Shown: positions 178-19,240 of the stretch, in pieces
How positions within the stretch are numbered: the first letter of the stretch is position 1
Layout: each line of letters opens with the position of its first letter
Sequence record: SRR20825010_6182
DNA length: 20,000 nucleotides
Reading direction: 5' to 3' (one strand)
Program-made: the position numbers and the translations under genes
Notes under the pieces: generated by a model
The model's database searches: none
Seen by the model: only the letters and a program-made list of their open reading frames with translations
What the model was told of the DNA's origin: nothing

Positions 178-1650
178 ATGATAAAATATAAAATATTATT
201 AATTGTTTGTTGCCTATTTTTCTCTTGTGAAGATTTCTTGGACGAGGTCCCAAGATCTCAAAAAACAACTGTAGGAACATCATTAGTTGACGCTGAACAG
301 TCCGTCAATGGAATATATGCCTTTTTACGAGCACCCTATAATAAATCGGGATATGCAAAGATGGTATTCTCCATTTTAGAGGTTAGTACAGGGGCTATGA
401 AACCAGCTATTGGCACCCAAGATACTGATATGGAGGACGCCTATAAATTGATATATAGTTCAAGTAATTCCAGCGCATCATCATTCTGGAGTACATACTA
501 TTCTGGAATAGAGGCTGCAAATATTGCTATTGCTTCCATTCCGGCAATCACAGATACTGAATTGACGCCAGCAATTTCCAAGGCTTTATTGGGAGAAGCC
601 CATTTTTTAAGAGCATATTACTATTTTGAACTCGTTCAATTATTCGGAGATATCCCGCTAAATATTGTCCCTTCAACCTCATTGGAAGATGGAACCTTGC
701 CAAAATCAAGCGTACAGGAAGTTTACGAAACCGTAATACTTCCGGATTTACTATTTGCTGAAAGCGCTGGTTTGCCCAACACTTCTACTAGTGGGAGAGT
801 TACCAATGGTGCAGTGAAATCCTTGCTGGCCAAGGTATATTTAACCATGGCCGGAAACCCTCTAAATCAAACAGACAAATATGCACTTGCGCGGGACAAG
901 GCCTCTGAGGTAATTACCGCGGATTGGTATAATTTGTTCGAATCCGATGGTTCATTGACCTGGTTTGATAAATTAAACAATCCAGCTTTTGATAATACTG
1001 GTGAAAATATATTCATGGTGCAATATGAAGGAGGATCAATTGCATCTTCTATTTCTACATATTTCACCCCTTTGGGTGGCGAGGATATTACCAATCAGAG
1101 CTTACATTTTGGAGGTATGGAGCCAGAGGTTGATTATATCAATACTTATGATGGAGCAGATTTGAGAGGACAAAACCAAGGATTCTTTTTCAATGAGTTT
1201 GACGGAGTTACTTTTAATAATTCTGTATACAAATATTTTTATCAAGAATTTAGAAATTCAAATGGATTGTCCAGTAAAAATGTTCCATTGCTAAGATATG
1301 CGGACGTATTATTGACGTATGCGGAGGCCCAAAACGAGACGACTTCAGCTGATGCATCAGCTTATGATGCATTAAATTCAATCCGACTCAGAGCGGGTTT
1401 GGCTGAGGTCTCTGGTCTAAGTAAAGAAGCGTTTAGGGAAGAAGTTTGGAAACAACGTTTTTGGGAATTCCCAGCAGAAGCTGGGTTAATATGGTTTGAT
1501 CAAAGAAGGACGGGCAAGGTTTTTAATGGTGGCGGTTTTACGGATCTAGTGGGGAGCACTTTACCTAACGGCAGTACCTTAACCGCAGATAACCTGTATT
1601 TTCCAATACCTCAAAACGAAGTAGTTCTTAATCCAAATTTAGGGGATTAG
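178..1650 (+). CDS. RagB/SusD-family outer-membrane glycan-binding lipoprotein
   Basis: Lipoprotein signal (FFSC, Cys17) followed by EDFLD. SusD motifs GEAHFLRAYYYFELVQLFGDIP, LLAKVYL, LRYADVLLTYAEA, LNSIRLRAGL and C-terminal YFPIPQNEVVLNPNL. Confidence 0.96.
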   Translation: MIKYKILLIVCCLFFSCEDFLDEVPRSQKTTVGTSLVDAEQSVNGIYAFLRAPYNKSGYAKMVFSILEVSTGAMKPAIGTQDTDMEDAYKLIYSSSNSSASSFWSTYYSGIEAANIAIASIPAITDTELTPAISKALLGEAHFLRAYYYFELVQLFGDIPLNIVPSTSLEDGTLPKSSVQEVYETVILPDLLFAESAGLPNTSTSGRVTNGAVKSLLAKVYLTMAGNPLNQTDKYALARDKASEVITADWYNLFESDGSLTWFDKLNNPAFDNTGENIFMVQYEGGSIASSISTYFTPLGGEDITNQSLHFGGMEPEVDYINTYDGADLRGQNQGFFFNEFDGVTFNNSVYKYFYQEFRNSNGLSSKNVPLLRYADVLLTYAEAQNETTSADASAYDALNSIRLRAGLAEVSGLSKEAFREEVWKQRFWEFPAEAGLIWFDQRRTGKVFNGGGFTDLVGSTLPNGSTLTADNLYFPIPQNEVVLNPNLGD

Positions 1651-1912: not shown

Positions 1913-4786
1913 ATGAAAAAATATTTGCAATTATTTGTGTTTTGTTTGGTAGCTGGTTATTCCTTTGTGCTCTCAGCCCAGGGTCAACAGACCGTGGCCA
2001 TAAAATATGTAAAGCCATATGAGTATGTGACATCAGATAATAACCTAATGGCCAAAGCATATCTATCCGGTGACAACACCAATTTCTATAGGACTATAGC
2101 TTTTGAAAGCGGACAGACCGTGAAAGTTGAACAAAAAGATGATAAGGCTTGGGTCTGGCTACCGGTAATAGGGGAGCCCGAAATGATAGAAATCACGGCC
2201 AGTAATAGGAAAATGAACCAGGAGCAACTCTTTACCCCATTAGTAACCTCGGACTGGGGATATTTCAGCGAGGGTACATTCCATATAATTTCATCTTCCC
2301 ATCAAGATATAGCCTGGATGGATACCCCGGAATATTGTATGCACGAAAGGGTTAACGAGATTATTGCCCCCGCGTTGGATATAATGAAATCTGACAAGGA
2401 TTACTATTTCGGAATGGAACAGGCCTTAAATTTAAAGGAATTCGTGGAAGCACATCCAGAGAGAAAGGATGAGGTTATAGAACGTTACAAGGAAGGCAGG
2501 TTTACCTGGGGAGCAACATACAACCAGCCATATGAAGGTATGCAGATGGGCGAGCAATTGATTAGGGAAATGTATTTTGGCAAGCTCTGGATCAAAGAGA
2601 ATTTTGATGGGGTTTTGGAAGAGACTGCTTTTAATACTGATGTACCTGGGAGAACATTGCAATTTCCCCAAATTTTGGCAAAATCAGGTGTAGAAAACCT
2701 TTTTGTGTCCAGAATGAGGGAAGGTTTTTATGATTGGCATTCACCGGATGGTTCTTCAGTACTTACCTACACCCCAGGTAATTATGGTTGGGCCGCCATG
2801 TTTTATAAGCTATTTGAGGAAGATGCTATCGAGGCCCTGCACAAAATCCAAAATAGGGTTAAAATGTGGAGCGATTATTATAAGAAACACAATTTGCCCC
2901 CGCATTTTGCAATAGTATTAAGCAACGACGCTTCTGGTCCCGTGGATTATGGACATGTAGTGAAGGAATGGAATGAAATTGTGGCCAAGACAGGGGCCAA
3001 TATACCTAGTTTAAGACATTCTACGGTAACCAGCTTCCTTTCAGAAATTAAACAACCGGGAGCCAAGTTTGAGGACCTACAGGGAGATCGCCCTAATATT
3101 TGGGCATATATACACGGCCCAGGGCATCACAAGGCTATAACAGCTTCTAGAAAGGCGGGTAGGATTCTACCTTCAGCGGAAATTTTTGGCACTGTGGATG
3201 CGTTGCTAAACAAAAGTTTTGATCAATATCCAACATCACGATTATCAAAAGCGTTCGAAGAATCAATATATCCAGACCATGGATGGGGAGGAAAAAACGG
3301 TCACATTACCGATAGCATTTTTAAGGATAAATTGGAGTTTGCGGCCGATGAGGCCGATAAACTGTTACAAGCATCTCTAAATTCCATTTCTGAAAAAATC
3401 AAAACAGAAAAATCCAATGGGATCGTGGTGTACAACGATCTTTCTTGGAAGCGAAGTGGATTGGCTTCAGCAAAAATAGACAATGCAAATGCATATTATG
3501 TTATAGATGATAGGGGTAATGTGGTCCCTTCGCAAACAAGTACTGGGAATAGTAACGAAATACAATTCTACGCCTCGGATATTCCTTCACTTGGATATAA
3601 AACCTTTTATTTAAGAAAGGGTAAAAAAAGTTCTAAGGTAAATAAAGCGGTTGCACCTAATTCTTTGACGAACGACTATTATACCATGCACCTTGGCAAT
3701 GGGGGAATTAGTTATTTGTTTGATCATAATTTGGGAGCTGAAATCATGAATACCACACGTTTTTCGGGCGGTGATATTTTATCAATGGGGTATAATGGAA
3801 ATGGTGCTGGGGAATTTACCCAGATGACCGAACCCAATATGGAAGATTATGACAAGATGAGCAACCATAATGGCAATTGGGAAATAGTGGCAGATGGTGC
3901 AGTGTACACTGAATATGAAAATAAGGCAAAATTTAAGCACATATCTACGGTAGCCCAGAGAATTCGGGTATTCCATCAGGAGAAAAAAATAGATTTCTTC
4001 ATAGATTTTCATAACTGGGACGGTACACATAACAGGGAGTTTAGGTTTGCAGTGCCCCTTAATATGGAGAATTCCAAGATTAAATATGAGGTGCCTTTAG
4101 CTATAGCTGAAGTAGGGAAAACCGAGATGAAGAATGCCCCGGGAGGTTGGGCATGGGGCGGAACCTATGATCAAAAGCCCGTAACCATACATCCACGTGA
4201 AGTGATGAACTTTATCGCGGCCGAGAATGAAGATTTTGCCGTAACCGTGGCTACCGATGTAGCTTTGGCCGATTGGATAGACCCTACAAGAGAAGCAGTA
4301 GATTATACCGTTCTACAAGGGATTTTGATGGCTTCACATAAAAGTTGTCATGGTGAGGGCAACTGGTATCATCAGACTGGAGACCATCATTTTAAGTTTT
4401 CTTTGGCATCTCACAAGAAAGATGAAAGTACCTCTTTCCAGTTTGGAACAGCTTCTAACCACCCCTTAAGAACGGTATTGAAGCCTAAATCCAACACCAA
4501 AGGAGATCTGGCTCAAGAAATGAGTTTTTTCAATGTTTCGGACCCAATGGTTCGTATCAGCACTATTAAAAAGAGTGAGAAAAATAATGATGTAATCATG
4601 AGGTTGGTAGAAATGGAAGGGAAAGATAAGGAACCTACAATAAAGTTGGCACTACCTTTCAAGGAGCTGATCAAAACCAATTTAATAGAAGAGGAACAAA
4701 GTAAATTGCCTTTATCAGGTAAAGATTTTAAGGTAAATGTAGGTCATAATGCCATAGATACATACAAACTAATTTTTTCCAAATAA
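1913..4786 (+). CDS. Glycoside hydrolase family 38-like (alpha-mannosidase-like) protein, secreted, paralog A
   Basis: Sec signal peptide. SHQDIAW matches the GH38 HxD..W Zn motif, and GEQLIREMYFG, NTDVPG (nucleophile region) and WHSPDGSSV are present. The C-terminal ISTIKKSE..DVIMRLVE..G..TNLIEE region is typical of GH38 C domains. Confidence 0.85.
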   Translation: MKKYLQLFVFCLVAGYSFVLSAQGQQTVAIKYVKPYEYVTSDNNLMAKAYLSGDNTNFYRTIAFESGQTVKVEQKDDKAWVWLPVIGEPEMIEITASNRKMNQEQLFTPLVTSDWGYFSEGTFHIISSSHQDIAWMDTPEYCMHERVNEIIAPALDIMKSDKDYYFGMEQALNLKEFVEAHPERKDEVIERYKEGRFTWGATYNQPYEGMQMGEQLIREMYFGKLWIKENFDGVLEETAFNTDVPGRTLQFPQILAKSGVENLFVSRMREGFYDWHSPDGSSVLTYTPGNYGWAAMFYKLFEEDAIEALHKIQNRVKMWSDYYKKHNLPPHFAIVLSNDASGPVDYGHVVKEWNEIVAKTGANIPSLRHSTVTSFLSEIKQPGAKFEDLQGDRPNIWAYIHGPGHHKAITASRKAGRILPSAEIFGTVDALLNKSFDQYPTSRLSKAFEESIYPDHGWGGKNGHITDSIFKDKLEFAADEADKLLQASLNSISEKIKTEKSNGIVVYNDLSWKRSGLASAKIDNANAYYVIDDRGNVVPSQTSTGNSNEIQFYASDIPSLGYKTFYLRKGKKSSKVNKAVAPNSLTNDYYTMHLGNGGISYLFDHNLGAEIMNTTRFSGGDILSMGYNGNGAGEFTQMTEPNMEDYDKMSNHNGNWEIVADGAVYTEYENKAKFKHISTVAQRIRVFHQEKKIDFFIDFHNWDGTHNREFRFAVPLNMENSKIKYEVPLAIAEVGKTEMKNAPGGWAWGGTYDQKPVTIHPREVMNFIAAENEDFAVTVATDVALADWIDPTREAVDYTVLQGILMASHKSCHGEGNWYHQTGDHHFKFSLASHKKDESTSFQFGTASNHPLRTVLKPKSNTKGDLAQEMSFFNVSDPMVRISTIKKSEKNNDVIMRLVEMEGKDKEPTIKLALPFKELIKTNLIEEEQSKLPLSGKDFKVNVGHNAIDTYKLIFSK

Positions 4787-4794
4787 TAATCATT

Positions 4795-5190
4795 ATGGGG
4801 CTTATTGAAAAGATTTCAAATGAAAAAGCAGGATTCCATCCTGTTGTGGTAAAGGATTGTTGGCAGGTGATCAAGGTGAATTATTCCCAGCAAAATGAAT
4901 TGGATAAAATAGATTCCCTTATCCGTAATGGAAATAATGCTCTGGCCCTGTGCTTATTAAAAGGTAGGGCGGTATTGCTCATTCAGAATTCGGAAAAAAA
5001 CGCAGTGTCATTAAAAGCTATAACCATGGTTAGGGGATCATCCTATGTTATCCCCGAAAATGTTGGCTATAATATAGCAATGGAAAAGGGTTGTCAACTA
5101 TTTGCTGTGGAAAGTCCCTATAACCGTACTGAAAATGTGCGAAAAATACCTTTGACCAATGCGGAATTGGAGGTTATAAAAAAAATGTAA
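4795..5190 (+). CDS. Hypothetical cupin-like protein; degenerate paralog of 7472..7891
   Basis: Aligns with 7472..7891 (GFHPVVVKDCWQV..NY vs GYHPFIIKDGWQL..NY; YVIPENVGYNIAME vs YNIPKGVWHNIAME). Starts 8 nt after the GH38 stop. Confidence 0.75.
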   Translation: MGLIEKISNEKAGFHPVVVKDCWQVIKVNYSQQNELDKIDSLIRNGNNALALCLLKGRAVLLIQNSEKNAVSLKAITMVRGSSYVIPENVGYNIAMEKGCQLFAVESPYNRTENVRKIPLTNAELEVIKKM

Positions 5191-5212
5191 ATAAAGAACT
5201 TAAAAATTAAGA

Positions 5213-5917
5213 ATGGAAACAATTGCACCCTTGTGGAAAAATGATGACGAGCTATTTAAAATAGCCAAAGAAGAACTATTCGTTGCCCTAGTAGGAGATA
5301 TTTTGGATACCTTAGGTTACCAGCATCAATTTTTGCCGCCCAATATTAAACCACTAAACCCTGATTTTGTGCTAATTGGGAGGGCAATGCCCGTATTGGA
5401 AGCAGATGTATTTGAGGAATCAGCGCAAAATACTAACAATCCGTTGATGAAAAAGCCCTTTGGAATCATGTTCGAAGCCTTGGACGACCTTAAAAAAAAT
5501 GAGGTGTATATCTGTACGGGTTCATCACCAAGGTATGCCCTTTGGGGAGGCTTAATGAGTACCAGGGCAATGAAACTTATGGCTGCTGGAGCAGTAATGG
5601 ATGGCTACTCTAGGGATACCAACGAAGTACTTAATTTAAATTTTCCTACATTTTCTTTTGGTGGTTATGCTCAAGATCAGGGACCGCGAGGCAAGGTGAT
5701 AGATTACCGTGTGCCCATTGAAATTAAGGGGACAAGGATAAATCCAGGGGACATAATTTATGGTGACAGGGATGGGGTGTTGATTGTGCCAAAAGAAGTG
5801 GAAACCAAAGCATTTATGGGCGCTATTGAAAAAGCCAGAGGTGAGCAATTGGTTAAAAAGGCCTTGGAAAACGGAATGAGCACCGTTGATGCTTTTAATA
5901 AATTTGGAATTATGTAG
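5213..5917 (+). CDS. RraA/HMG-aldolase-family protein (putative class II pyruvate aldolase)
   Basis: Motifs VGDILD, IGRA, ALWGGLM, DGYSRD and INPGDIIYGDRDGVLIVP. Confidence 0.88.
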   Translation: METIAPLWKNDDELFKIAKEELFVALVGDILDTLGYQHQFLPPNIKPLNPDFVLIGRAMPVLEADVFEESAQNTNNPLMKKPFGIMFEALDDLKKNEVYICTGSSPRYALWGGLMSTRAMKLMAAGAVMDGYSRDTNEVLNLNFPTFSFGGYAQDQGPRGKVIDYRVPIEIKGTRINPGDIIYGDRDGVLIVPKEVETKAFMGAIEKARGEQLVKKALENGMSTVDAFNKFGIM

Positions 5918-5956
5918 CCGTGCCAAGATAGGGATGCATTAATAGAAAAATAATTT

Positions 5957-7414
5957 ATGAAAACTAAAAAATCCAACTATTTGTTGGGAATAAGCTTCGT
6001 CTCAACCATTGGAGGTTTTCTCTTTGGTTACGATACCGCAATTATATCGGGATGCAATACTTTTTTGGAACAGCATTTTAATTTGTCCGCTGCCGAGCTT
6101 GGTTGGTTGGTGTCGTCGGCATTGTTGGGAACCATTTTAGGTTGTGTAGTTGCAGGGTCAATAACAGACAGATTAGGACGAAAAAAAGCTTTGATCATAG
6201 CGGCAATTTGCTTGACTATTTCGGCATTTGGCTCTATGTTGCCCCCACAGTTCATGGGTGATCTGGATCAAGCTTATTGGCTTACTGCCAACGAAAAACA
6301 AGCATATACATTTTTAATATTGGTCCGTATTGTTGGTGGGATAGGTGTGGGTGTCACCTCAGTAGTGGCTCCTATTTACATATCGGAACTTTCCTTGCCC
6401 CAAAACAGGGGTAGAATGGTGTCCTTATATCAATTATCCATAACCTTGGGCATTCTTTTGGCTTTTTTAGTAGACTGGTTGGTCTTGACCAATGCAGGAA
6501 ATGCCGCAGGAGTAATTTCCAATGAACCTTCTGGGTTTTGGCAGTGGCTTTTTGTGGATGAAATTTGGAGAGGCATGTTTGGAACGGAAATACCTATTGC
6601 CTTGTTGTTCTTGATTTTATTATTCCTAGTGCCAGAAACACCAAGATGGCTTATTTCAAAACAGCGATATAACGAGGCCGAAAAAATTATGGTAAAAATC
6701 AATGGAAAAGAGTACGCCCAAAAGCAAATGGCTGAAATAAAAGAGGTGGTTAAATTAGAAAGCGGGGGAATAAGTGAATTATTAAAGCCTTTTTTAAGAG
6801 TTCCGTTGTTAATAGGTGTATTACTTCCCATGTTTTCCCATTTGAGCGGGATAGCAGCCATTATGTATTTTGCTCCGAATATTATTAACGAATCCATACA
6901 GAGTGTGGAGAGCTCCTTTTTGGGGGCTGTATTGGTAGGTGTGGTCAATAGTGCGTTTACATTCGTCGCGATTATGAATATTGAAAAATTTGGACGAAGA
7001 AAGCTGTTACTTGTTGGAGTTGTTGGGGCGTGTATTTCCCTAACGGGCGTGGGGATTTTGTTTGCATTAGGATCCCAATACGTAATTATTCCTTTATTGA
7101 TGTATGTGGCTAGTTTCGCGTTTTCGTTCGGACCCATCGTTTGGGTGATTATCAGTGAAATTTTCCCTACACGCATACGTGGGTTGGCAGTTTCCATAGG
7201 TAGCTTCGCTTTAATGGTTACCGGGTTTTTTATCACCTTGACCAATCCTATATTAATAGAAGAAATTATGCCTTCGGGTACCTTCTTTGTTTATGCGGCT
7301 TTAACCTTACCGGCTATTTGGTTTATTTGGAAATATGTACCCGAAACAAAAGGAAAGACCTTAGAGGAAATTGAAATGTATTGGCGACAGGACAAGAGCA
7401 ATAATAGAATATAA
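5957..7414 (+). CDS. Sugar porter family MFS transporter (XylE/AraE-like H+ symporter)
   Basis: Motifs GGFLFGYDTAIISG, DRLGRKK, PIYISE...RGRMVSLYQ, PETPRWL, EKFGRRKLL, SEIFPTRIRG and PETKGKTLEEIE, with multiple hydrophobic segments. Confidence 0.96.
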   Translation: MKTKKSNYLLGISFVSTIGGFLFGYDTAIISGCNTFLEQHFNLSAAELGWLVSSALLGTILGCVVAGSITDRLGRKKALIIAAICLTISAFGSMLPPQFMGDLDQAYWLTANEKQAYTFLILVRIVGGIGVGVTSVVAPIYISELSLPQNRGRMVSLYQLSITLGILLAFLVDWLVLTNAGNAAGVISNEPSGFWQWLFVDEIWRGMFGTEIPIALLFLILLFLVPETPRWLISKQRYNEAEKIMVKINGKEYAQKQMAEIKEVVKLESGGISELLKPFLRVPLLIGVLLPMFSHLSGIAAIMYFAPNIINESIQSVESSFLGAVLVGVVNSAFTFVAIMNIEKFGRRKLLLVGVVGACISLTGVGILFALGSQYVIIPLLMYVASFAFSFGPIVWVIISEIFPTRIRGLAVSIGSFALMVTGFFITLTNPILIEEIMPSGTFFVYAALTLPAIWFIWKYVPETKGKTLEEIEMYWRQDKSNNRI

Positions 7415-7471: not shown

Positions 7472-7891
7472 ATGATTAAAGAATACAAGACAAAAGAAAA
7501 AGGATATCATCCATTTATTATAAAGGATGGGTGGCAATTGGCAAAATTGAATTATACGGAAGAGCAGCATATAGACAAGATCATCCAATTGGATGTACAC
7601 TTGGAAACAGATGAAGTTTTTGTTGCCATTGCTGGGAAGGCGGTGCTAATAGCTGCCGAAATAGTCGATAAAGTACCGAAGTTTGAATTGGAACCAATGA
7701 AAATTAACCAAATCTATAATATCCCGAAAGGAGTCTGGCACAACATAGCCATGGAGGAAGGAAGCGAAGTCTTAATCGCAGAAAAATCAAATACCCATAT
7801 TTCAGATTTTGAACATTTTGCCCTTAATGATCTTCAGAAAAAGGAATTGGGAATTATGGTCAAGGGGGAATTGGAATCGCTAAAAATCTAA
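7472..7891 (+). CDS. Cupin-fold protein with intact putative metal site (ureidoglycolate-lyase-like motif pattern)
   Basis: DVHLETDEVF (H43, D47/E48) and YNIPKGVWHN (H90) match the two cupin motifs. Confidence 0.75.
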   Translation: MIKEYKTKEKGYHPFIIKDGWQLAKLNYTEEQHIDKIIQLDVHLETDEVFVAIAGKAVLIAAEIVDKVPKFELEPMKINQIYNIPKGVWHNIAMEEGSEVLIAEKSNTHISDFEHFALNDLQKKELGIMVKGELESLKI

Positions 7892-7912: not shown

Positions 7913-8713
7913 ATGAAAGAAATAGATCTAAAAGGGAAAAAGGTTTTGGTAACTGGAGGAAGCAATGGGATCGGAGCAGAAATTTGTAAGCAATTTGCTA
8001 GCTGTGGTGCGGATGTTTTTATCAATTATTATAAGAACAAGGAAAATGCAGAAATTCTAGCCAGTGAAATACGTGAAGCCCATGGGGTAAAAGTAAGCTG
8101 TTATGGGGCGGATGTTTCCAATGGTGCTGAGGTAGAAAAATTATTCCAACAAATGGACGTGGACATGGGCTCTATTGATGTTTTGGTTAATAATGCAGGT
8201 TGTGAGACCGTAGAACATGTTTTAGATATGGAAGAAAGCGAATGGGATAGGGTCCTTAACGTTAATTTGAAAGGCCCTTTCCTCTGTTCACAACAAGCTG
8301 CCAGGAGAATGGAAAACATGGGTGGTGGGGTAATTATCAACATCTCTTCCATTCATGATACCGTACCAAGAAAAGGGTTAATACATTACTGTTCTGCCAA
8401 AGCTGGACTTAAAATGTTTTCTAAATGTCTGTCTTTGGAACTAGCGGACAAAGGGGTTAGGGTAGTCTCCGTTGCACCGGGTGCAATTGAAACCAATATG
8501 AACAGGGAGGAGATAAAGAAATTTGGTAAGGACAAGTTTGAACAGTGGATTCCGCAGGGGCGTATAGGAGAGGTATCGGACGTAGCAAATACCGTTGTTT
8601 TTATGGCCAGCGATTTGGCTAATTATATCAATGGAGCGGATATTTATATTGACGGGGCATATATGAACCATACTATACAATATGATCCCAGACCTAAAAG
8701 AGAAAACAAGTAA
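7913..8713 (+). CDS. SDR-family oxidoreductase, glucose-1-dehydrogenase-like
   Basis: TGGSNGIG Rossmann motif, VNNAG, NISSIH, catalytic YCSAK, VAPGAIET and IPQGRIG. Confidence 0.92.
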   Translation: MKEIDLKGKKVLVTGGSNGIGAEICKQFASCGADVFINYYKNKENAEILASEIREAHGVKVSCYGADVSNGAEVEKLFQQMDVDMGSIDVLVNNAGCETVEHVLDMEESEWDRVLNVNLKGPFLCSQQAARRMENMGGGVIINISSIHDTVPRKGLIHYCSAKAGLKMFSKCLSLELADKGVRVVSVAPGAIETNMNREEIKKFGKDKFEQWIPQGRIGEVSDVANTVVFMASDLANYINGADIYIDGAYMNHTIQYDPRPKRENK

Positions 8714-8728
8714 CCCAATAATTATATC

Positions 8729-9874
8729 TTGAAAAAAATCACATTAAAAGGCATTGCTTGGGACCATCCCAGAGGTTATCAACCTCTTAGAGCGACCTCT
8801 GAGACATTTAAGCAATTACATCCTGAGGTAGATATTCTGTGGGATATCCGTTCCCTTAAAGAGTTTGGGGACATGCCAATAGAGGATCTGATTGAAGTCT
8901 ATGATCTAATAACTATTGATCATCCTTATATGGGGCAAGCCAATGCCAACAATCTGCTGTTACCTTTAGACAAATTGATTCCGAGGCATAGCTTGGAGAA
9001 ATTGAAGGAGGAGTCCGTAGGTCCCAGTTACCAAAGTTATTATTATAATGGCAATCTTTATGCTATAGCTGTAGATGCTGCGGCCTTGGTTGCTGCATAT
9101 AGGGAAGATCTAATTTTAAAATTAGGTCTAAATGTTCCTAAAACTAGAGCGGAACTATTGGATTTCTATAAAAAAACACCGAGTTCCCACATGGTAGCAT
9201 GGCCCTTATGTGCCACCGATCTTTGGTGCACTTTCCTAACCTTATGCGCGCAGGATGGTGGTAGGGATTTTATAAAGGATAAAACAATCGAAAATCGTTT
9301 AGGTATACAAGTCCTGGATGAATTAAAAATACACTTGGAATACCTTCATCACGAATCCATAAATTGGAATCCTATCCAGATCTTAAACCGTATGGCTGAG
9401 GAGAATGAGATACTCTATTCCCCATTTTTATTCGGTTATACCAATTATTCCAGATTGGGATATGCTAAAAACCTCGTGAAGTTTGGGAATAGCCCAACAA
9501 ATCCTAATATCGAAGTTTCTACTATATTGGGTGGGGTGGGCCTTGCCATATCTGCGCATAGTGAGCATCAGGATATGGCAGCAGCCTATATAAATTATGT
9601 GGCAAAGGCAGAGACCCAAGAGGGGATTTATACCAAAAATGGAGGTCAACCAGGGAATCTTAAAGCATGGCAAAATCAGGGGAACAATACGTTATGTAAC
9701 AATTTTTTTGCCTCAACCATAGACACCATGAATAAAGCGTATGTGCGTCCCCAACACAAGGGATGGAACAAATTCCAGGAACAAGGTGCAGATCTATTGC
9801 ATAACGGTCTTGTAAAGAACATTCCTTCGGATACCATAATGAAAAAATTAAATCAGTTATACCAATCTATTTGA
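8729..9874 (+). CDS. Carbohydrate solute-binding-protein fold, no signal peptide (TTG start)
   Basis: Begins MKKITLKGIAWDHPRG. Segments YDLITIDHP, LLPLD, YYYNGNLYAIAVD...AYREDL and LGGVGLAISAHS..A..YI resemble family 1 SBPs. No hydrophobic N-terminal leader. Confidence 0.78.
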   Translation: MKKITLKGIAWDHPRGYQPLRATSETFKQLHPEVDILWDIRSLKEFGDMPIEDLIEVYDLITIDHPYMGQANANNLLLPLDKLIPRHSLEKLKEESVGPSYQSYYYNGNLYAIAVDAAALVAAYREDLILKLGLNVPKTRAELLDFYKKTPSSHMVAWPLCATDLWCTFLTLCAQDGGRDFIKDKTIENRLGIQVLDELKIHLEYLHHESINWNPIQILNRMAEENEILYSPFLFGYTNYSRLGYAKNLVKFGNSPTNPNIEVSTILGGVGLAISAHSEHQDMAAAYINYVAKAETQEGIYTKNGGQPGNLKAWQNQGNNTLCNNFFASTIDTMNKAYVRPQHKGWNKFQEQGADLLHNGLVKNIPSDTIMKKLNQLYQSI

Positions 9875-9875
9875 A

Positions 9876-10643
9876 ATGGATAGTAAGTACAAAAATATAA
9901 ATCTAAATATAGACAACAAGGTTGCTGTACTAAAGTTTAACAGGCCAGACCAGCTAAATGCCATGAACAGGCAAATGATGGATGAAATTATTGATGGTAT
10001 TGTAACTATCAATAATAATGAGGATGTTAAAGTGGCCGTTATCACTGGGAGGGGACGTGCTTTTATGGCTGGTGCGGACATTAAGGAGTATGGAAGTCAA
10101 ACCGCAGAGCAGTTTAGATCGTTTCAAGAAAGGGGCATAGCCTTGTATGAGGCCATTGAAAATGCTCCCAAGCCGTGGATAGCGGCAGTGAACGGATTTG
10201 CATTGGGAGGCGGTTTTGAAATTGCGCTTGCCTGTGATTTGATTTTGGCCAGTGAAAACGCCAAGATGGGGCTGCCAGAAGTATTTTTAAGTTTGATTCC
10301 CGGGGGAGGGGGTACCCAACGACTTATTCAAAAGATAGGCGTAAACCGTGTAAGGGAAATGTTATTTTTGGGAGGGCAATATTCATCCGAACAACTTCAC
10401 GCATGGGGAATCGTAAACCAGATTGTGCCTGACGGGGAATTTGATGAAACCATATGGCTATATGCGGAGAAACTAAGCCGTAGATCACCTAGTGCCATCA
10501 AACAACTGAAAAAATTGGTTCAATTAAGTCTTACATCCTTGTCTTTTGATCAAAAAATACAGGAGGAAGCCAAGACCGTAACCAAACTTTTTTACAGCCC
10601 TGAGGCAAAAAAAGCTATACAAGACTTTATTGAAAAAACATGA
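9876..10643 (+). CDS. Enoyl-CoA hydratase/isomerase (crotonase family)
   Basis: FNRPDQLNA, AFMAGADI and GFALGGGFEIALACD oxyanion motifs, plus GLPEV..LIPGGGGTQRL. Both catalytic glutamates are present. Confidence 0.95.
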   Translation: MDSKYKNINLNIDNKVAVLKFNRPDQLNAMNRQMMDEIIDGIVTINNNEDVKVAVITGRGRAFMAGADIKEYGSQTAEQFRSFQERGIALYEAIENAPKPWIAAVNGFALGGGFEIALACDLILASENAKMGLPEVFLSLIPGGGGTQRLIQKIGVNRVREMLFLGGQYSSEQLHAWGIVNQIVPDGEFDETIWLYAEKLSRRSPSAIKQLKKLVQLSLTSLSFDQKIQEEAKTVTKLFYSPEAKKAIQDFIEKT

Positions 10644-11695
10644 AAGCTGCACTTTTGATTTTATTTATAGGAAGTTATACGGAATATCCGATACCTGGTT
10701 TTGGAGGTATAGGCCATGGAATATATACCGTTCAATTGAATACCGAAACCGGTGAGTTGACAACTTTACATACCATGATGGCACGTAACCCCAGTTATTT
10801 GGTGGTTAGTGATGACAATCAGTTTTTGTACTGCGTTAACGAATTGGACGAAAGCGAAAACCCTAAAGTAGGGGCTTATAAAATCAATGCTGATTATTCG
10901 TTGCAATTTTTGAACGAACAACCCATAGCCGGGGGGTATCCATGCCATATCAAAACCTTTGGCAATAATGTATTGGTGGCCTGTTATGCAACAGGGAATA
11001 TTCATCAGTTTCCAGTTGAAGCCTCAGGGAAATTAGGCCCCGCGGTACAACAATATAGCCATGTCGGAAGTAGCGTTAATAGCGACCGTCAAGAAGCGCC
11101 TCATGCACACCAGATTGCCGTACATCCCAATGGCAGGGATGTTTATGTATGTGACCTAGGAATAGATATTATCAAAGCCTACCATTTTAAAGGAAAGAAC
11201 TTGGTGCCAAATGATATAAAGGATTGTAAAATATCAAAAGGAAGTGGCCCACGTCATATGGTTTTTGATGCCGCCGGAAATTTGGGATATGTAAACAATG
11301 AGTTGACAGGTACCGTTTCCGTTTTGAAACGTAAAGAAGGCTCTTTTGATGAAGAAGAAATCTATTCGGCCTTGCCCAATGATTTTACGGGGGTGCCAAG
11401 TGGATCGGCCATACGTATCCACCCTAATGGTCAATTCCTATACGTCGCCAATAGGAAATTGGAGGCAATAAGCATTTTCAGAATATATAAGGACAAACTT
11501 GAACCAATAGAATATCAGTATACCAAGGGTGAGGAATTACGGGAATTTAACATTACCCCGGATGGAAATTGGTTAATTGCTTGCCATCAGAACTCCCATG
11601 ACACAGTGGTATACCAAATAAAAAGTGACGGAAGATTACAGGAACGTTATCGCACTAAGGAAATATTGTCCCCGGTCTGCGTTGTTTTTAATTAA
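10640..11695 (+). CDS. Lactonase, 7-bladed beta-propeller (6-phosphogluconolactonase/Pgl family)
   Basis: Motifs FIGSYT, NPSYL, PCHI, ACYATG, RQEAPHAH, DLGID, GSGPRH, NELTGTV and YVANR. ATGA overlap with the upstream gene. Confidence 0.93.
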   Translation: MKAALLILFIGSYTEYPIPGFGGIGHGIYTVQLNTETGELTTLHTMMARNPSYLVVSDDNQFLYCVNELDESENPKVGAYKINADYSLQFLNEQPIAGGYPCHIKTFGNNVLVACYATGNIHQFPVEASGKLGPAVQQYSHVGSSVNSDRQEAPHAHQIAVHPNGRDVYVCDLGIDIIKAYHFKGKNLVPNDIKDCKISKGSGPRHMVFDAAGNLGYVNNELTGTVSVLKRKEGSFDEEEIYSALPNDFTGVPSGSAIRIHPNGQFLYVANRKLEAISIFRIYKDKLEPIEYQYTKGEELREFNITPDGNWLIACHQNSHDTVVYQIKSDGRLQERYRTKEILSPVCVVFN

Positions 11696-14173: not shown

Positions 14174-16876
14174 ATGACAAGGAAAATTTATCAGATTGTA
14201 ATAATAATTTCAATTCTTCTTATTAACCAATTAAGAGGGCAAAAAAAATTTAATAGTGATCGGGAAACCTATGATTTGCTGAAATCATTGTCCAATTCCA
14301 AGCTGGGAAGTGGAAATGTGCTTTTATTTACAACCACACACGAAGATATTGCATGGTTGAACGAGCCCGAAATTTGTAAGATTGATAGGGACAAATTATG
14401 GTTAACACCATATATGGATCGATTGAAGTCAGAATCCGACTTTAAAATGGACATAGAGCAGTCTTCTATAGTCATGGAGTATTTACACAGACACCCAGAG
14501 GAGAAGGAAAACTTCATCAAGTTTGTTAAAGAAGGACGGATCTGTATAGGGGGTGCATATGTACAAACTTATGAAGGCATGTATTCCGGAGAATCCTTGG
14601 CTAGGCAATTTTATTTCGGTAAAAAATGGTTGCAAGATAATCTAGATGGGTATCAGACCAACGTGTACTTCAATAACGATGTGCCGTCCAGGACTATGCA
14701 AATGCCACAATTGGCCAGTAAGGCAGGAGTCAATAATTTTGTTTTTGCCAGACACATAAAAGGATTGTTCTATTGGGAATCTCCAGACGGATCTAAGGTG
14801 CGATGTTACAGTCCAGGAAACCACTATATGGAATTCTACAATCTATTGGGGCAAAAGGATTCGGTTGCAATAAAAACCATGGCGAAAGAAGCGGTAGACT
14901 GGTATACTATTTATAATAATACATCCTTAAGTAATACGGTAATGCCCGCTATGTTGAATTATGAGTTTATTTGGCCCCAAGAACCAGTGAAGAATTCCGT
15001 TCCCTTTATGAATAAATGGAATTCTATAACACAAATCGAGTTAGATGGCAAAAATCGTATTAATGTAAATCTACCTAAGTTCAGGTATGCTACAGCAGAC
15101 GAGTTTTTTGAAAGCGTAGTGGCAACTACATCAATAGGAAAAACTATAAAGGGTGAACGTCCAAATACTTGGGTCTATATACATGGAGCTGGACACCAAA
15201 AGGCGCTAAGAGCAAGTCGGGAAGGCGATATTTTAATGACCAAGGCAGAAAAGTTTGCTACGGCCAATGCACTTATTGATGGTTCGTTCAACAAATATCC
15301 GGGACGGGAACTTTACGATGCTTGGGAGTCTAAGATTTATCCAGACCATGGCTGGGGAGGTAAGGGAGGCGATGTTACCGACAACCTGTTTCTACAAAAG
15401 TTTCTATTCGCCAAATCCGTGGCTGAAAAGATATTGGATGAATCTCTAGAAGCCATTGCGGGAAAGATTTCGTTCAAAAAAGAAAATGGCTCACCAATTG
15501 TTGTTTTTAATAGTTTAAGTTGGGAGCGTTCAGATCCAGTTAATTTTAAAATTAATTTTCAATCCAAGGATGCAAAGAACTTTCAGTTGTTAACTGAAGA
15601 AGGCGGAAATGTACCAGTACAATTATCGGAATTGACTTATTATCCTAATGGATTCATACAATCCGCCAAGGTGAATTTTGTGGCTAATAATCTTCCTTCT
15701 ATTGGGTATAGAACATTCTACTTAAAATCATCCGATGAGGTAGAAAAGAACATGGTAGCTAATAATACTGGCACCTTTGAAAATGCCTATTACAAAGTAA
15801 AGTTTGGTGACGGAGGTTTAGAGAGTATTTATGATAAAGATTTGCAAAAGGAACTGATTGACGCCAAAAGCTTTAAGGCCGGTGAAATCTTTGCGATGAA
15901 TTCAGAAGGTAATGGTGCTGGAGAATTTGCTGAAGTTCAGCAACCAGATGTCAGCTTTTTTGACAGACTTGCCAGTAGTACAACCAAATGGCAGTTGGAG
16001 GATGATGGCCCGATATATACTAGTTATAAAATGAGGCAGAAGATGAAGGAAGCTGTTGTTGAATTGAAAATTACGTTTTATAATTCAACAAAGAAAATAG
16101 ATTTCGATGTTGATCTATTGAACTGGGACGGTATTATTTACAGGGAATTTCGAATGGCCTTGCCATTGAATATGCAGAATGGGGAAGTTACTTATGAAGT
16201 TCCATTTGGGGCAGTCACTGTTGGTAAGGATGAATTAAGAGGTACTGGAGGGGATTTTTATAATACACCGGTACGTGAAATTCATCCAAGAGAAATTGAA
16301 AACTGGATATCTGCAAGTAATTCAGAATTTGGGGTAACATTGAGTTCTAGTGTTGTAACCGCTGATTGGATAAATCCAATAGATTCTTTAAGTACACGGA
16401 CTATTTTACAACCCATACTTTTGGCTTCGCGTAAAAGCTGTCATTGGGAGGGTAATAATTATCATCAAACTGGCGATCATCATTTCAATTTTAGCATAAC
16501 CTCACATTCTAGTGGATGGAAAAATGGGCAAAGATTTGGAAAACAATCAAATGAAAAACCAAATGTTGTGGTTCATCCGCACTCTTATAGTCAAACTTCA
16601 TTACCTGATAAATTGAGTTTTTTCAGTGTAGATAAGGAGAATGTGGTTATTTCTACTGTGAAGAAGGCAGAAGATGATCAAGATGTAATTATAAGGGCGT
16701 ACGAAACAGATGGGGATGATGTTGATGCAGCTATTTCCATGTTCAAACCTATCACAAAGGCGTATTTGACCACCTTGATAGAACAGCCTATTTGGGAAAT
16801 TAATAATGATAAACAAAAAATTGAACTGAACCTAGGTCACAATTCCATTGAAACGATAAAAATTGAGCAATATTAA
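14174..16876 (+). CDS. Glycoside hydrolase family 38-like protein, probably secreted, paralog B
   Basis: Hydrophobic N-terminus. Motifs THEDIAW, SGESLARQFYFG, NNDVPS, FYWESPDGSKV, IYPDHGWGG, VVFNSLSWER and ISTVKKAED..IIRAYE. Collinear with 1913..4786. Confidence 0.85.
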   Translation: MTRKIYQIVIIISILLINQLRGQKKFNSDRETYDLLKSLSNSKLGSGNVLLFTTTHEDIAWLNEPEICKIDRDKLWLTPYMDRLKSESDFKMDIEQSSIVMEYLHRHPEEKENFIKFVKEGRICIGGAYVQTYEGMYSGESLARQFYFGKKWLQDNLDGYQTNVYFNNDVPSRTMQMPQLASKAGVNNFVFARHIKGLFYWESPDGSKVRCYSPGNHYMEFYNLLGQKDSVAIKTMAKEAVDWYTIYNNTSLSNTVMPAMLNYEFIWPQEPVKNSVPFMNKWNSITQIELDGKNRINVNLPKFRYATADEFFESVVATTSIGKTIKGERPNTWVYIHGAGHQKALRASREGDILMTKAEKFATANALIDGSFNKYPGRELYDAWESKIYPDHGWGGKGGDVTDNLFLQKFLFAKSVAEKILDESLEAIAGKISFKKENGSPIVVFNSLSWERSDPVNFKINFQSKDAKNFQLLTEEGGNVPVQLSELTYYPNGFIQSAKVNFVANNLPSIGYRTFYLKSSDEVEKNMVANNTGTFENAYYKVKFGDGGLESIYDKDLQKELIDAKSFKAGEIFAMNSEGNGAGEFAEVQQPDVSFFDRLASSTTKWQLEDDGPIYTSYKMRQKMKEAVVELKITFYNSTKKIDFDVDLLNWDGIIYREFRMALPLNMQNGEVTYEVPFGAVTVGKDELRGTGGDFYNTPVREIHPREIENWISASNSEFGVTLSSSVVTADWINPIDSLSTRTILQPILLASRKSCHWEGNNYHQTGDHHFNFSITSHSSGWKNGQRFGKQSNEKPNVVVHPHSYSQTSLPDKLSFFSVDKENVVISTVKKAEDDQDVIIRAYETDGDDVDAAISMFKPITKAYLTTLIEQPIWEINNDKQKIELNLGHNSIETIKIEQY

Positions 16877-16885
16877 GTCTATAAA

Positions 16886-18277
16886 ATGAAAAGAAGAAAA
16901 TTCATCACAGTTACAAGTACTTCTGCTATTGCAGTTACTGGAGTTTCACCTTTATTAACGTGGGCTTGTAGTGAACCTAAATCAAGTGCTACTTTGCTGA
17001 AAGAACAGGCTTTGTTAGCTTTTAAAAGATTTGAAGAAGTTTGGGATTTTCAAGATTTTTGGAAGAGGGGAAATACCTTCGACGCCTGTTTGGTTTTTGT
17101 AGAAGCCCTGCAACAACGTTGGCCGAAGGATAAGGAAGTTGAAGCAATACAAGAAAAAGTGGGGGAAATGTTGAAGGAAAACCTAACTTTTTTTAAAAGC
17201 TACGACCCTGGAACACTTTGGGCAGATGATTTTGGTTGGTGGGGTCTACTGGCACTCAATGCGCGCAAGCACCTTCTGCGAATAGGGGACATGGAACTAG
17301 CCGATAAATACCTAAAATTGTCAACCGATCTATGTTGGGAATACAAAAGGAAAACTGCCTATGACCATACGGATGCTGCCAGACCTGTTTTACATGGTTG
17401 TAGAAATGGAGATGCAAATGGGGATAGTTTGGGCGTTAAGAACACTGTTACCAATGTTTTGTTGTTCTTGCTTTCCTCACGAATTTATCGCCTGTCATTG
17501 ACCGAAAATATAAATGACAACGACAAATATTTAGATATGGCCTACCGCCAGTGGGTATGGTTCAATGAGTGGTTCAAATTAACTGAATACCGATATTTAA
17601 AAGAACTATCTACTTCGGGCGCTTTAGTTCAAGAACGACCCATGGCATTTTTTGAAGGGTCTACGTATCAAGAAAAAACACACCCCACTTGGGCCGAGGG
17701 TTGGGTGTGGACAGGCGACCAAGGAATGTTGGTTGCCGCTTTGACCGATATGTTAGCGATTAAAAATGAGTTGTCTACCTATCTTACAACAAATAATATA
17801 GATTCCAATTTTGACTTAAAAGCCTATGAATCTAGATTAAAGGATATCATAAAGTCAATAGGCAAAGGTGTTAAAAATGCCATGGTCGCTAATGTGGACG
17901 GCATTATCCGTGAGGCACCATGCCTTCCTAGCTTTGGACCCGAACATGGAAGGGATTACCTCGCCGGCCGTGGTATTATGATGCGATATTTAGGCAGCGA
18001 TGAAGCAAGAGCTCTAATAAATGTTGACCTGACTGGAAATATTGAAAAAACTTTAGCTGCCATTTGGAGTACACGTGATTTAGCAACCAATCAGTTTCAA
18101 CCCGAATTTACGAGCCTACAAAATGATAAGCTTTATGTGGAGCAGTTCCGAAAACTTTGGGGCTTTGCCGATGATGTGTATCAATGGGATATAGAATCGA
18201 TGAAAGAGAAAAATAAAAATGGAGTGTGCCAGTCCATAGGGCTCGACCTCATTGGTGCTGCTATTAAAGGAATGTGA
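16886..18277 (+). CDS. GH76-like (alpha/alpha)6 glycoside hydrolase, Tat-exported lipoprotein
   Basis: KRRKFI twin-arginine motif and lipobox TWAC (Cys28). [10 protein letters not shown] resembles the GH76 catalytic DD motif, KNTVTN resembles KNAIxN, and WTGDQG resembles WTYNQG. Confidence 0.7.
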
Positions 18278-18298: not shown

Positions 18299-19240
18299 AT
18301 GAAAATTAATTATAACCTCTTTTTGGCAGCGATGGTTTTATCGCTAATAGTCTCCTCAGCCACAGTATATGCACAAAAAAAAGAAACGAATTTCGAAGGA
18401 CGTTGGGATATGACAATCGATCACAATGGCAATTATGCTTCATCATGGTTGGAGATAAAGCCTTGGGGGTATACAAAAGTGGGGACATTTTTACATACAG
18501 GAGGATATCCTAGACCACTTTCAGAAATAAATATAAAGGACGATTACTTTTATTTCTCGGTCCCATGGGAATCAGAGAAAAGAAAACTTAAATTGGAAGG
18601 TAGGATCAATGGCGATAGTTTACAAGGTGAAATTCACTACCCCGATGGTAAAAAGTACCATTGGTCCGCGGTTAGGGCCCCAGAGCTTCCATATGTTAAA
18701 AACCCCGCTTGGGGTACGCCTATAGTACTATTCAATGGTGAAAACTTGGAGGGTTGGCACACTAGGGGAAATAATCAGTGGGTTGCAGAATCTGGAATCT
18801 TAAAGAGTCCCAAAGCTGGGTCTAACCTAATTAGTGATATGGAGTTTATGGATTTTAAACTGCATTTGGAATTTAGGTATCCAGAACATGGAAACAGTGG
18901 GGTATATCTTCGAGGAAGATATGAAGTCCAGATTTTCGACAGTAAGGGAATGAGGCCGTCCAGTGATCAATTCGGAAGTATTTTTGGTTTTTTGGAGCCC
19001 AATGAAATGGTTGCTAAAGGTCCAGGTGAATGGCAAACCCTGGATATTACTTTGGTTGGCAGGAGGGTTACTATTGAGTCCAATGGATCTATAATAATCA
19101 ATGACCAGCGAATACCAGCTATTACAGGTGGGGCATTGGATAGCAAAGAAGATGAGCCCGGTCCATTTATGCTTCAAGGAGATCATCATCCTATCGAATT
19201 CAGAAATATAATTGTCACACCCATGGTTACAGGTATGTAA
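18299..19240 (+). CDS. DUF1080 (3-keto-glycoside hydrolase/hydratase-like) protein, secreted
   Basis: Signal peptide and an N-terminal beta domain (GRWDMT). DUF1080 motifs LFNGENLEGW, DFKLHLEF, GNSGVYLRGRYEVQI, GEWQT and LQGDH..IEFRNI. Confidence 0.9.
   Translation: MKINYNLFLAAMVLSLIVSSATVYAQKKETNFEGRWDMTIDHNGNYASSWLEIKPWGYTKVGTFLHTGGYPRPLSEINIKDDYFYFSVPWESEKRKLKLEGRINGDSLQGEIHYPDGKKYHWSAVRAPELPYVKNPAWGTPIVLFNGENLEGWHTRGNNQWVAESGILKSPKAGSNLISDMEFMDFKLHLEFRYPEHGNSGVYLRGRYEVQIFDSKGMRPSSDQFGSIFGFLEPNEMVAKGPGEWQTLDITLVGRRVTIESNGSIIINDQRIPAITGGALDSKEDEPGPFMLQGDHHPIEFRNIIVTPMVTGM

Follow-up and report, generated by a model that had tools for sequence, protein, structure and literature searches.

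A leaderless MalE-type binding-fold protein encoded with a crotonase and a class III CoA-transferase in a putative sugar-acid operon

The DNA analysed here, sequence record SRR20825010_6182, is a stretch of 20,000 nucleotides (nt), called the window throughout, and it carries at positions 8729-9874 an open reading frame (ORF) whose product resembles the solute-binding proteins (SBPs) of ATP-binding cassette (ABC) sugar importers. On the evidence of its structural model and its gene neighbourhood, this SBP-like protein is an intact, full-length MalE-type fold and not a component of a transporter. It belongs to a family, spread over several phyla, whose link with class III (CaiB/BaiF) coenzyme A (CoA)-transferases is strong but not obligatory, and which probably has an undescribed job inside the cell. 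Tentatively, and with somewhat less than even confidence, we read the protein from its sequence and gene context as a cytoplasmic accessory, either binding a ligand or catalysing a reaction, in a part of sugar-acid catabolism that depends on CoA, where it would act with a module made of a crotonase and a class III CoA-transferase.

Results

The first-pass annotation of this DNA had described a protein that opens directly at its first beta-strand and lies only 15 nt from the stop of the upstream short-chain dehydrogenase/reductase (SDR) gene, leaving no room for a leader. Both statements hold. Strand 1 comprises residues 4-11 of the AlphaFold2 model (predicted local distance difference test, pLDDT, 97.8; predicted template-modelling score, pTM, 0.94; 150 aligned homologues as input), and the SDR stop codon (TAA, 8711-8713) is found 15 nt 5' of the TTG start, in the same frame, with five sense codons (PNNYI) between the two. 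Because this in-frame stop lies five codons upstream, a longer N-terminus or a leader is impossible to encode. The N-terminus itself (MKKITLKGIAWDHPRG) contains no hydrophobic stretch, and since the first cysteine is residue 161, the protein has no lipobox; the absence of a leader was thus judged from the in-frame stop, the motif offsets described below and hydrophobicity.

The ORF matches the Pfam families SBP_bac_1 (E 3.6e-13, 50.6 bits against a cut-off of 26) and SBP_bac_8 (E 5.2e-12, 46.6 bits against 27); no other Pfam family reached E<=0.01, and no NCBIfam model matched. Foldseek comparison of the model with the PDB returned CUT1 sugar SBPs exclusively (template-modelling score 0.77-0.85, probability 1.00, 14-20% identity), among them GacH (3jzj), T. 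maritima MalE3 (6dtq), SmoF (7yzs) and the trehalose/maltose-binding protein of T. litoralis (1eu8). By sequence alone the best solved relative is found at E 1.2e-5, and a search of the ESM Atlas gave clusters named 'ABC transporter substrate-binding protein' exclusively. The SBP fold spans all 381 residues, with no DNA-binding or signalling domain. The window contains neither an ABC permease nor an ATPase, none being found by Pfam among its 15 large ORFs, and a major facilitator superfamily (MFS) sugar porter (5957-7414) is present for import; the first-pass annotation was correct on both counts. As the export signal and the cognate permease genes are both missing, the SBP-like protein should not be filed as a transporter component, and we infer that it is cytoplasmic.

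The protein had been called an orphan, a label that the size of its family does not allow: a word-indexed search gave 1406 homologues at E<=1e-3, and an exhaustive search of 50%-identity representatives gave 1566 clusters at the same threshold and 442 at E<=1e-30. The family is present in Bacteroidota and on plasmids of Pseudomonadota and Streptomyces. The best 120 of the 1406 homologues are 56-92% identical to the window protein and nearly all 379-388 amino acids (aa) long. The window protein begins at the strand-1 motif of the family, G-x-x-W-D/N-H-x-R-G, and keeps the conserved columns, and its relatives start in the same way: the motif was located in 116 of 120 close homologues (four of the 120 are truncated at the N-terminus) and in 135 of 150 representatives, and the equivalent of W11 lies at position 25 or earlier in 111 and 134 of these, respectively, so that in both sets together 245/251 begin within 25 residues of the conserved tryptophan. 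The sole representative of the 150 with a signal-like N-terminal extension, twin-arginine translocation (Tat) or Sec in type and 56 residues long, is P0201. Homologues are therefore leaderless nearly throughout.

In an alignment of 150 sequences, 31-92% identical to the window protein, which forms its first row, eight columns are invariant (D59, P66, G268, G269, G271, G306, Q307 and W314) and a further 34 are conserved in at least 90% of the sequences, including W11, H13, R15, W38, R41, D64, H65, D116, R125, Y230, Y237, Y240 and R340, which makes 42 columns in total. The motifs WDHPRG and IDHP, put forward earlier as candidate functional residues, are thus signatures of the family (W11, H13, R15, D64 and H65 at 90% or more, P66 invariant); the conserved motifs presumably lie on ligand-contacting loops of the cleft, by homology with MalE. 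Comparison with three Arenibacter orthologues gave ratios of nonsynonymous to synonymous substitution rates (dN/dS) of 0.146-0.159, and comparison with one from Maribacter gave 0.10. The gene is not a remnant, because it is intact and under purifying selection, and the proposal of a cytoplasmic, repurposed SBP gains from these data, the homologues being full length (~380 aa), starting at the same strand 1 and evolving at a dN/dS of ~0.15.

Apparent decay of the gene can be seen elsewhere in the family. At two loci (L059 and L060, from Jejuia and Flaviramulus) only the first ~75 SBP-like codons (residues 2-76) are left with ~7-10 kb of DNA beyond, the crotonase is gone and Flaviramulus (genome G311) has just a partial CoA-transferase, a picture that resembles decay of the whole SBP-like/crotonase/CoA-transferase module. 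At L061 and L063 the match also covers residues 2-76, here because the contig stops inside the gene.

We then compared the window with 63 Bacteroidota loci obtained by a pattern scan, one genome per species, whose ORFs were matched to the window proteins. The closest come from Arenibacter (87-90% identity), which makes this genus the probable source of the window, and the operon is found in Flavobacteriaceae, Marinilabiliales, Cytophagales, Saprospiraceae and one Flavihumibacter. The conserved, co-directional order is RraA-like, MFS, cupin, SDR, SBP-like, crotonase, lactonase, class III CoA-transferase and UxuA-like, the lactonase preceding the SBP-like gene in some lineages; the operon is flanked by genes for glycoside hydrolases (GH38, GH76, GH92) and SusC/D. 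In the window the crotonase begins at 9876, 1 nt past the SBP-like stop, as had been noted, and by ORF picking it is the next 3' gene in 46/58 full-length loci. In three more it is displaced by an overlapping ORF and in one (L002) it is fused to the lactonase, giving a corrected count of 50/56 loci that have downstream DNA; the SBP-like/crotonase junction often overlaps, by 4-44 nt. The SDR gene lies directly 5' in 29/58 loci, typically 12 nt away.

The first-pass annotation had proposed to compare how often homologues neighbour CoA enzymes and how often ABC permeases. A class III CoA-transferase homologue is present in 47/63 loci, and 9 of the 16 loci without one end within ~2 kb 3' of the SBP-like gene; an ABC permease is present in 0/63. 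For the latter count, the 265 ORFs of at least 100 aa that lie within 10 kb and match no window protein were clustered into 118 representatives and scanned with Pfam, and none of the 118 is a BPD_transp_1 permease. The single ABC_tran ATPase in the 63 loci lies ~6.7 kb off on the opposite strand, between unrelated genes, and two related Arenibacter genomes contain one BPD_transp_1 match each. LacI-family regulators occur in 28/63 loci, and the PfkB kinase and KDPG-aldolase families in 6/63 each.

Some loci depart from this arrangement. In Arenibacter palladensis (L002:11148-12971, equivalent to window 9876-11695) the crotonase and lactonase are read as one 607-aa ORF that opens as a crotonase and has its best match to the lactonase; this is either a real fusion or a one-base assembly error, and, if real, it would tie the crotonase functionally to the lactonase. 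In some operons that have no beta-propeller lactonase, a protein of the M24 (prolidase) fold occupies the lactonase position (L013:11915-13093, L111:3162-4526 and L121:3651-4931). Arenibacter also has a second SBP-like copy, 57-58% identical, in a different cluster (L046, L048) with a periplasmic GH63-like enzyme, UxuA-like, MFS and SDR genes and an AraC regulator; on the opposite strand lie genes for UxuA, lactonase, SDR, a FAH-family hydrolase, an APH-like kinase and enolase (L048:1626-7986). This paralogue cluster has no CoA enzymes, and it resembles a diketo-hydrolase route leading to pyruvate and glycerate, and on to phosphoenolpyruvate, in place of the CoA module.

The link with the CoA-transferase was quantified in 401 evenly drawn Flavobacteriaceae genomes, with SBP-like homologues called at E<=1e-40. 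An SBP-like homologue is present in 26 and a CoA-transferase homologue in 30; 24 genomes have both, 2 the SBP-like gene only, 6 the CoA-transferase only and 369 neither (Fisher p 8e-31, uncorrected for relatedness). Four of the six CoA-transferase-only genomes hold proteins just 31-32% identical, and the other two hold contig-end or partial fragments. No clear case of an orthologous CoA-transferase without an SBP-like gene was found: of two candidate exceptions, one is a 528-base contig fragment, and in the other the SBP-like gene is a truncated remnant and the CoA-transferase is partial. In two genomes (G020, with locus L006, and G322) the crotonase is kept and the CoA-transferase is absent at the locus, a 45-46% identical paralogue being encoded elsewhere. 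Gene content is nested, with CoA-transferase within crotonase, crotonase within SBP-like, and SBP-like within the core operon.

The same partnership is found far outside the Bacteroidota. A distant member (P0148, 37% identical to the window protein) has tblastn matches in 148 plasmid records, including Sinorhizobium pSymB, Ensifer, Azospirillum and Streptomyces. In seven annotated plasmid neighbourhoods, from S. meliloti, Roseateles, Rufibacter, Microbulbifer, Roseibium, Persicobacter and Jannaschia and thus covering Alpha-, Beta- and Gammaproteobacteria and Cytophagia, a CaiB/BaiF CoA-transferase is adjacent to or near the SBP-like gene in 7/7, several with 4-nt overlaps, and a crotonase or MaoC hydratase is present in 6/7. 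The other neighbours are sugar-type dehydrogenases, lactonase or dehydratase genes and transporters of the tripartite ATP-independent periplasmic (TRAP), RhaT or ABC type; one locus (L065) also encodes a dedicated L-rhamnose mutarotase.

An alignment of 73 distant members, used to scan metagenomes, added 80 loci. ORF calls are rough in this high-GC DNA and were supported by searching every stop-to-stop frame with profile hidden Markov models, which for the neighbouring genes were made from sequences collected in this analysis. In 56/80 loci a class III CoA-transferase is encoded no more than 3 kb away; the share is 34/37 where both flanks reach at least 1.2 kb and 17/19 where they reach at least 3 kb. 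As its third gene the module has a crotonase, a MaoC hydratase or a class I CoA-transferase-like protein. ABC permeases occur within 4 kb in 5 of the 19 distant loci with at least 3 kb of flank, and in each of the three where the downstream ORF was read and scanned (L108, L115, L133) a separate SBP_bac_1 protein of 431-458 aa with a lipoprotein or Tat-type N-terminus lies beside them. Since a separate, signal-bearing SBP adjoins these permeases, the leaderless protein is not the receptor of those transporters.

The hydratase type correlates with the sugar context. Markers of L-6-deoxy-sugar catabolism (Amidohydro_2, MR_MLE, RhaT) are present in 7/10 MaoC-type loci and in 1/74 crotonase-type loci (Fisher p 2e-7, uncorrected for relatedness). 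In the SBP-like alignment there is no column that both crotonase groups conserve (at least 70%) and in which the MaoC group differs.

Three peculiarities of the distant loci are recorded here. The ~590-aa class I CoA-transferase-like protein (PF01144) is encoded next to the class III CoA-transferase and SBP-like genes or between them and matches 3-oxoacid CoA-transferase weakly (L073, L074, L076, L090 at 5082-6872, L093, L097, L112, L118, L126 and 15 more). The Rufibacter and Persicobacter plasmids encode a second, divergent SBP-like protein with no obvious leader (L066:11661-12788, L069:10445-11677), in the order RhaT, SBP-like, CoA-transferase, CoA-transferase, second SBP-like, Gfo/Idh/MocA and, further on, MaoC; the second SBP-like protein is 18% identical to the first and the two CoA-transferases are 54% identical to each other, so that these rhamnose-type clusters hold two binding-fold proteins for two transferases. 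Finally, the CoA-transferase/SBP-like pair on pSymB of S. meliloti 1021 (L151, 731300-733585) measures 2286 bases against 2288 in the query strain, and many RefSeq Sinorhizobium records show no gene at this position; the pair may be a frameshifted pseudogene in S. meliloti 1021, which would account for the missing functional data.

The two CoA enzymes of the window look active. The crotonase retains E115 (GGGFE) and E135 (GLPE), 20 residues apart, which we take to be the catalytic pair by analogy with mitochondrial enoyl-CoA hydratase, and D177 of the CoA-transferase, presumably the catalytic aspartate as in Frc and CaiB, is invariant in 80 aligned homologues. It is because E115, E135 and D177 are kept that both enzymes look catalytically competent.

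Discussion

The SBP-like protein shares the two-lobe class II SBP fold and the Pfam families of the CUT1 SBPs of ABC importers, but differs from them in important respects: (i) it has neither signal peptide nor lipobox, and neither permease nor ATPase genes accompany it; (ii) its gene is embedded among those of cytoplasmic enzymes; and (iii) its presumed pocket residues are invariant over differing sugar contexts. Reuse of SBP folds in the cytoplasm is known from the effector domains of LysR regulators, the HMP-P (hydroxymethylpyrimidine phosphate) synthase Thi5/NMT1, MqnA/MqnD and HisG. Although the idea of fold reuse is the same, those proteins belong to other SBP clusters and Pfam families, and the SBP-like protein matched neither the NMT1/Thi5 nor the MqnA/MqnD families at E<=0.01.

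For the partner enzymes the closest parallel is the carnitine system of E. coli, where the class III CoA-transferase CaiB and the crotonase CaiD form a CoA-dependent dehydratase. The window likewise pairs a class III CoA-transferase that has the conserved aspartate with a crotonase that has both glutamates, and by analogy the activation of a hydroxy acid as CoA thioester for the removal of water would fit an aldonate. To our knowledge, no SBP-fold protein is part of the Cai system. Further differences are that the window has no CaiC-type ligase, that the context is sugar-acid catabolism, and that other lineages swap the hydratase for MaoC or for a class I CoA-transferase-like protein.

An oxidative route for D-mannose through aldohexose dehydrogenase and mannonate dehydratase is known (PMC6901390), and the core of the window operon (SDR, lactonase, UxuA-type dehydratase and aldolase-family protein) appears to match its chemistry. 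The route is not known to need CoA enzymes or an SBP-fold protein, whereas the window operon has three added genes. A full-text literature search, which did not cover subscription journals, found neither the SBP-like family nor a CoA step in such sugar operons.

We propose that the ten-gene operon would serve oxidative, non-phosphorylative catabolism of D-mannose inside an alpha-mannan (GH38/GH76) locus. Alpha-mannosidases would act in the periplasm, followed by import through the MFS porter; the SDR would oxidise mannose to the lactone, which the lactonase would open, and dehydration by the UxuA-type enzyme would yield 2-keto-3-deoxygluconate, to be disposed of by RraA-family cleavage or by a kinase and KDPG aldolase. 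The SBP-like gene would be the first of an accessory module that continues with the crotonase and the class III CoA-transferase. Its product may close around a small anionic ligand common to all lineages, candidates being the CoA part of a thioester and a head group of general sugar-acid or lactone type; it may prepare this ligand for, or hand it to, the CoA-transferase/hydratase pair, which would perform a CaiB/CaiD-style CoA-dependent 2,3-dehydration (or 2-epimerisation) of an aldonate, here D-mannonate. That the ligand would be a common one and not a specific sugar is suggested by the near-invariance of many polar and aromatic positions across sugar contexts, together with the lack of any column that tracks the hydratase. 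The 3-hydroxyl of D-mannonate is configured as in (S)-3-hydroxyacyl-CoA, the substrate of crotonases, and that of L-rhamnonate and L-fuconate as in (R)-3-hydroxyacyl-CoA, the substrate of MaoC; the hydratase type thus appears to match the C3 stereochemistry of the sugar series, as would be expected of a CoA-thioester pathway.

Several observations weigh against this proposal: (i) four genomes (G004, G005, G282 and G197) contain the SBP-like gene and no PF02515 match anywhere, and at two of the corresponding loci (L015 in G005, L152 in G282) RraA, MFS, SDR, SBP-like, lactonase and UxuA are present without crotonase or CoA-transferase. (ii) Six copies that lack the CoA-transferase (L006, L015, L017, L046, L048, L050) share with the window protein at least 39 of the 42 conserved positions, the sole changes being S103T in two and T330I in one; conserved copies without a class III CoA-transferase imply that the protein has some use without it. 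(iii) In two genomes (G053, G076) the core operon is complete and all three module genes are absent. (iv) In 24/80 metagenome loci the PF01144 protein replaces the hydratase, and a simple cycle of transferase and hydratase does not explain this variant, which has two CoA-transferases and no hydratase. (v) The proposed CoA-dependent dehydration would duplicate the UxuA step, and no CoA ligase of the AMP-binding family was found among the 15 window ORFs. (vi) A weak search of 7999 longer candidate proteins gave no fusion of the SBP-like protein to an enzyme. (vii) The neighbourhood counts are inflated by relatedness. An SBP-like protein that is an obligate subunit of the CoA-transferase was considered and rejected on the four genomes with an intact copy and no PF02515; of the earlier suggestion of a partner for the CoA enzymes, the association stands, carried by gene neighbourhood across phyla, and the obligate form of it does not. 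Prediction of an SBP-like/CoA-transferase complex, run without alignments or controls, scored 0.01 against a mark of 0.34 and counts neither for nor against an interaction.

Some of these points lead directly to another explanation, in which the protein would serve the core steps from sugar to aldonate independently of CoA, handling anomers or lactones, or holding an unstable intermediate beside the SDR; mutarotase-like or lactone-isomerase-like catalysis by the conserved histidine and aspartate would be a candidate activity. It would account for conserved residues that are essentially unchanged in genomes without any PF02515 protein, for the minimal operons of RraA, MFS, SDR, SBP-like, lactonase and UxuA, and for the nested gene content, in which the SBP-like gene outlasts crotonase and CoA-transferase; the SDR gene directly upstream in 29/58 loci and the paralogue cluster, which uses SDR and a FAH hydrolase instead of CoA enzymes, are also in its favour. 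However, the constant neighbour in distant phyla is the class III CoA-transferase (34/37 and 7/7 loci), whereas the types of dehydrogenase, lactonase and dehydratase vary there; at one plasmid locus (L065) a dedicated L-rhamnose mutarotase is encoded beside it, complete core operons exist without the SBP-like gene, and the invariant pocket does not follow the sugar series. We regard a core role as unlikely, though it is the main rival to the CoA-linked proposal. A good deal less probable is a cytoplasmic sensor that binds a sugar or intermediate and modulates a LacI or AraC regulator or a transporter, with no chemistry of its own: the solute-binding fold is intact, LacI genes are present in 28/63 loci and AraC in the paralogue loci, and genes for transporters (MFS, RhaT, TRAP or ABC) are regular neighbours, but LacI-type regulators have their own effector domain, the SBP-like protein has no DNA-binding or signalling domain, and its place between enzyme genes, with start-stop overlaps to crotonase or CoA-transferase genes, fits stoichiometric co-production with enzymes better than it fits a regulator.

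The two remaining explanations fare worse. Export, by a mis-called start or a non-classical route, in the service of an importer encoded elsewhere is what public annotations imply when they name relatives 'extracellular' or 'ABC transporter substrate-binding protein', and P0201, 1/150 representatives, does have its signal-like extension of 56 residues; yet the stop lies in frame five codons upstream, there is neither a hydrophobic N-terminus nor an N-terminal cysteine, 245/251 homologues start within 25 residues of the conserved tryptophan, and permeases number 0 in 63 loci, with one BPD_transp_1 match per Arenibacter genome. We consider it very improbable, and an exported SBP with a distant ABC partner is essentially excluded by the in-frame stop, the leaderless homologues and the absence of permeases. 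Least probable of all is a decaying, truncated remnant of an ABC-transporter SBP gene: truncated copies do exist (residues 2-76 in L059, L060, L061 and L063), but the window gene is full length, with a confident fold, a dN/dS of 0.10-0.159 and 42 conserved columns, and hundreds of full-length relatives are found in several phyla. The conservation data refute it.

A more ambitious form of the CoA-linked proposal holds that an undescribed CoA-dependent branch of oxidative sugar catabolism cannot run without the family, which would catalyse a step in it or present the substrate, and this we think doubtful. In concrete terms, the SBP-like protein would open the aldonolactone with CoA, or hold the aldonate while it becomes the aldonyl-CoA thioester; the stereochemically matched hydratase (crotonase for D-manno, MaoC for L-6-deoxy sugars) would dehydrate the aldonyl-CoA, and the class III CoA-transferase would pass the CoA on. 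If true, the family would be the first example of a MalE-type binding protein put to use in CoA-thioester chemistry.

Whatever its activity, the annotations 'extracellular' and 'ABC transporter substrate-binding protein' that the family has received in hundreds of genomes are almost certainly wrong on both location and role, and they mislead the annotation of transport and carbohydrate loci, notably in marine Bacteroidota that degrade alpha-mannan. In several phyla the family is the sign of a recurrent three-gene module that has been added to non-phosphorylative sugar pathways: the SBP-like gene, a class III CoA-transferase and, as third member, either a hydratase or a class I CoA-transferase. 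The proteins should be soluble, and few ligands come into question. Resolving this module would add a step to sugar-acid catabolism, and the family would give a clean case of a transporter receptor that evolved into a cytoplasmic protein.

Other features of the window

The genes of the window are collected in Table 1. Between 4795 and 14017 the ten operon genes follow one another at gaps of -4 to 57 nt, and a scan of this operon for promoters and terminators gave counts equal to those of shuffled sequence. SusD-like proteins are markers of the polysaccharide utilisation loci of Bacteroidota.

Table 1. Genes of the operon and the surrounding locus in the window
Feature	Position	Strand	Remarks
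SusD-like outer-membrane glycan-binding protein	178..1650	+	Pfam SusD-like_3, SusD_RagB
GH38 alpha-mannosidase with signal peptide	1913..4786	+	Pfam Glyco_hydro_38N/C; hydrophobic N-terminus
Small cupin-like protein A, 131 aa	4795..5190	+	No Pfam family; paralogue of B, 27% identity
RraA-like class II aldolase/decarboxylase family protein, 234 aa	5213..5917	+	Pfam RraA-like E 3e-30
MFS sugar porter, 485 aa	5957..7414	+	Pfam Sugar_tr E 6e-105; NCBIfam sugar porter subfamily above cut-off
Small cupin-like protein B, 139 aa	7472..7891	+	No Pfam family; WbuC cupin 27 bits, below NCBIfam cut-off
SDR, sugar 1-dehydrogenase-like, 266 aa	7913..8713	+	Pfam adh_short; NCBIfam glucose 1-dehydrogenase subfamily, 227 bits against a cut-off of 215
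SBP-like protein, leaderless MalE/CUT1 fold, 381 aa	8729..9874	+	TTG start; Pfam SBP_bac_1/SBP_bac_8
Crotonase-type enoyl-CoA hydratase, 255 aa	9876..10643	+	Pfam ECH_1 E 6e-63
Seven-bladed beta-propeller lactonase, 351 aa	10640..11695	+	Pfam Lactonase E 1.8e-89; 4-nt overlap with crotonase
Class III (CaiB/BaiF) CoA-transferase, 390 aa	11748..12920	+	Pfam CoA_transf_3 (PF02515) E 1.6e-109
UxuA-like sugar-acid (mannonate) dehydratase, 353 aa	12956..14017	+	Pfam UxuA E 1.4e-55; NCBIfam mannonate dehydratase below cut-off
Second GH38 alpha-mannosidase	14174..16876	+	Pfam

Beyond the second alpha-mannosidase, the surrounding mannan locus continues with a 463-aa protein that has a Tat-like N-terminus and a weak GH76 match (E 2e-8; 16886-18277), and with a protein of the DUF1080/3-keto-disaccharide-hydrolase domain that bears a signal peptide (18299-19240). 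Within the operon, copies of the two cupin-like paralogues (4795-5190 and 7472-7891) are kept across the related loci.

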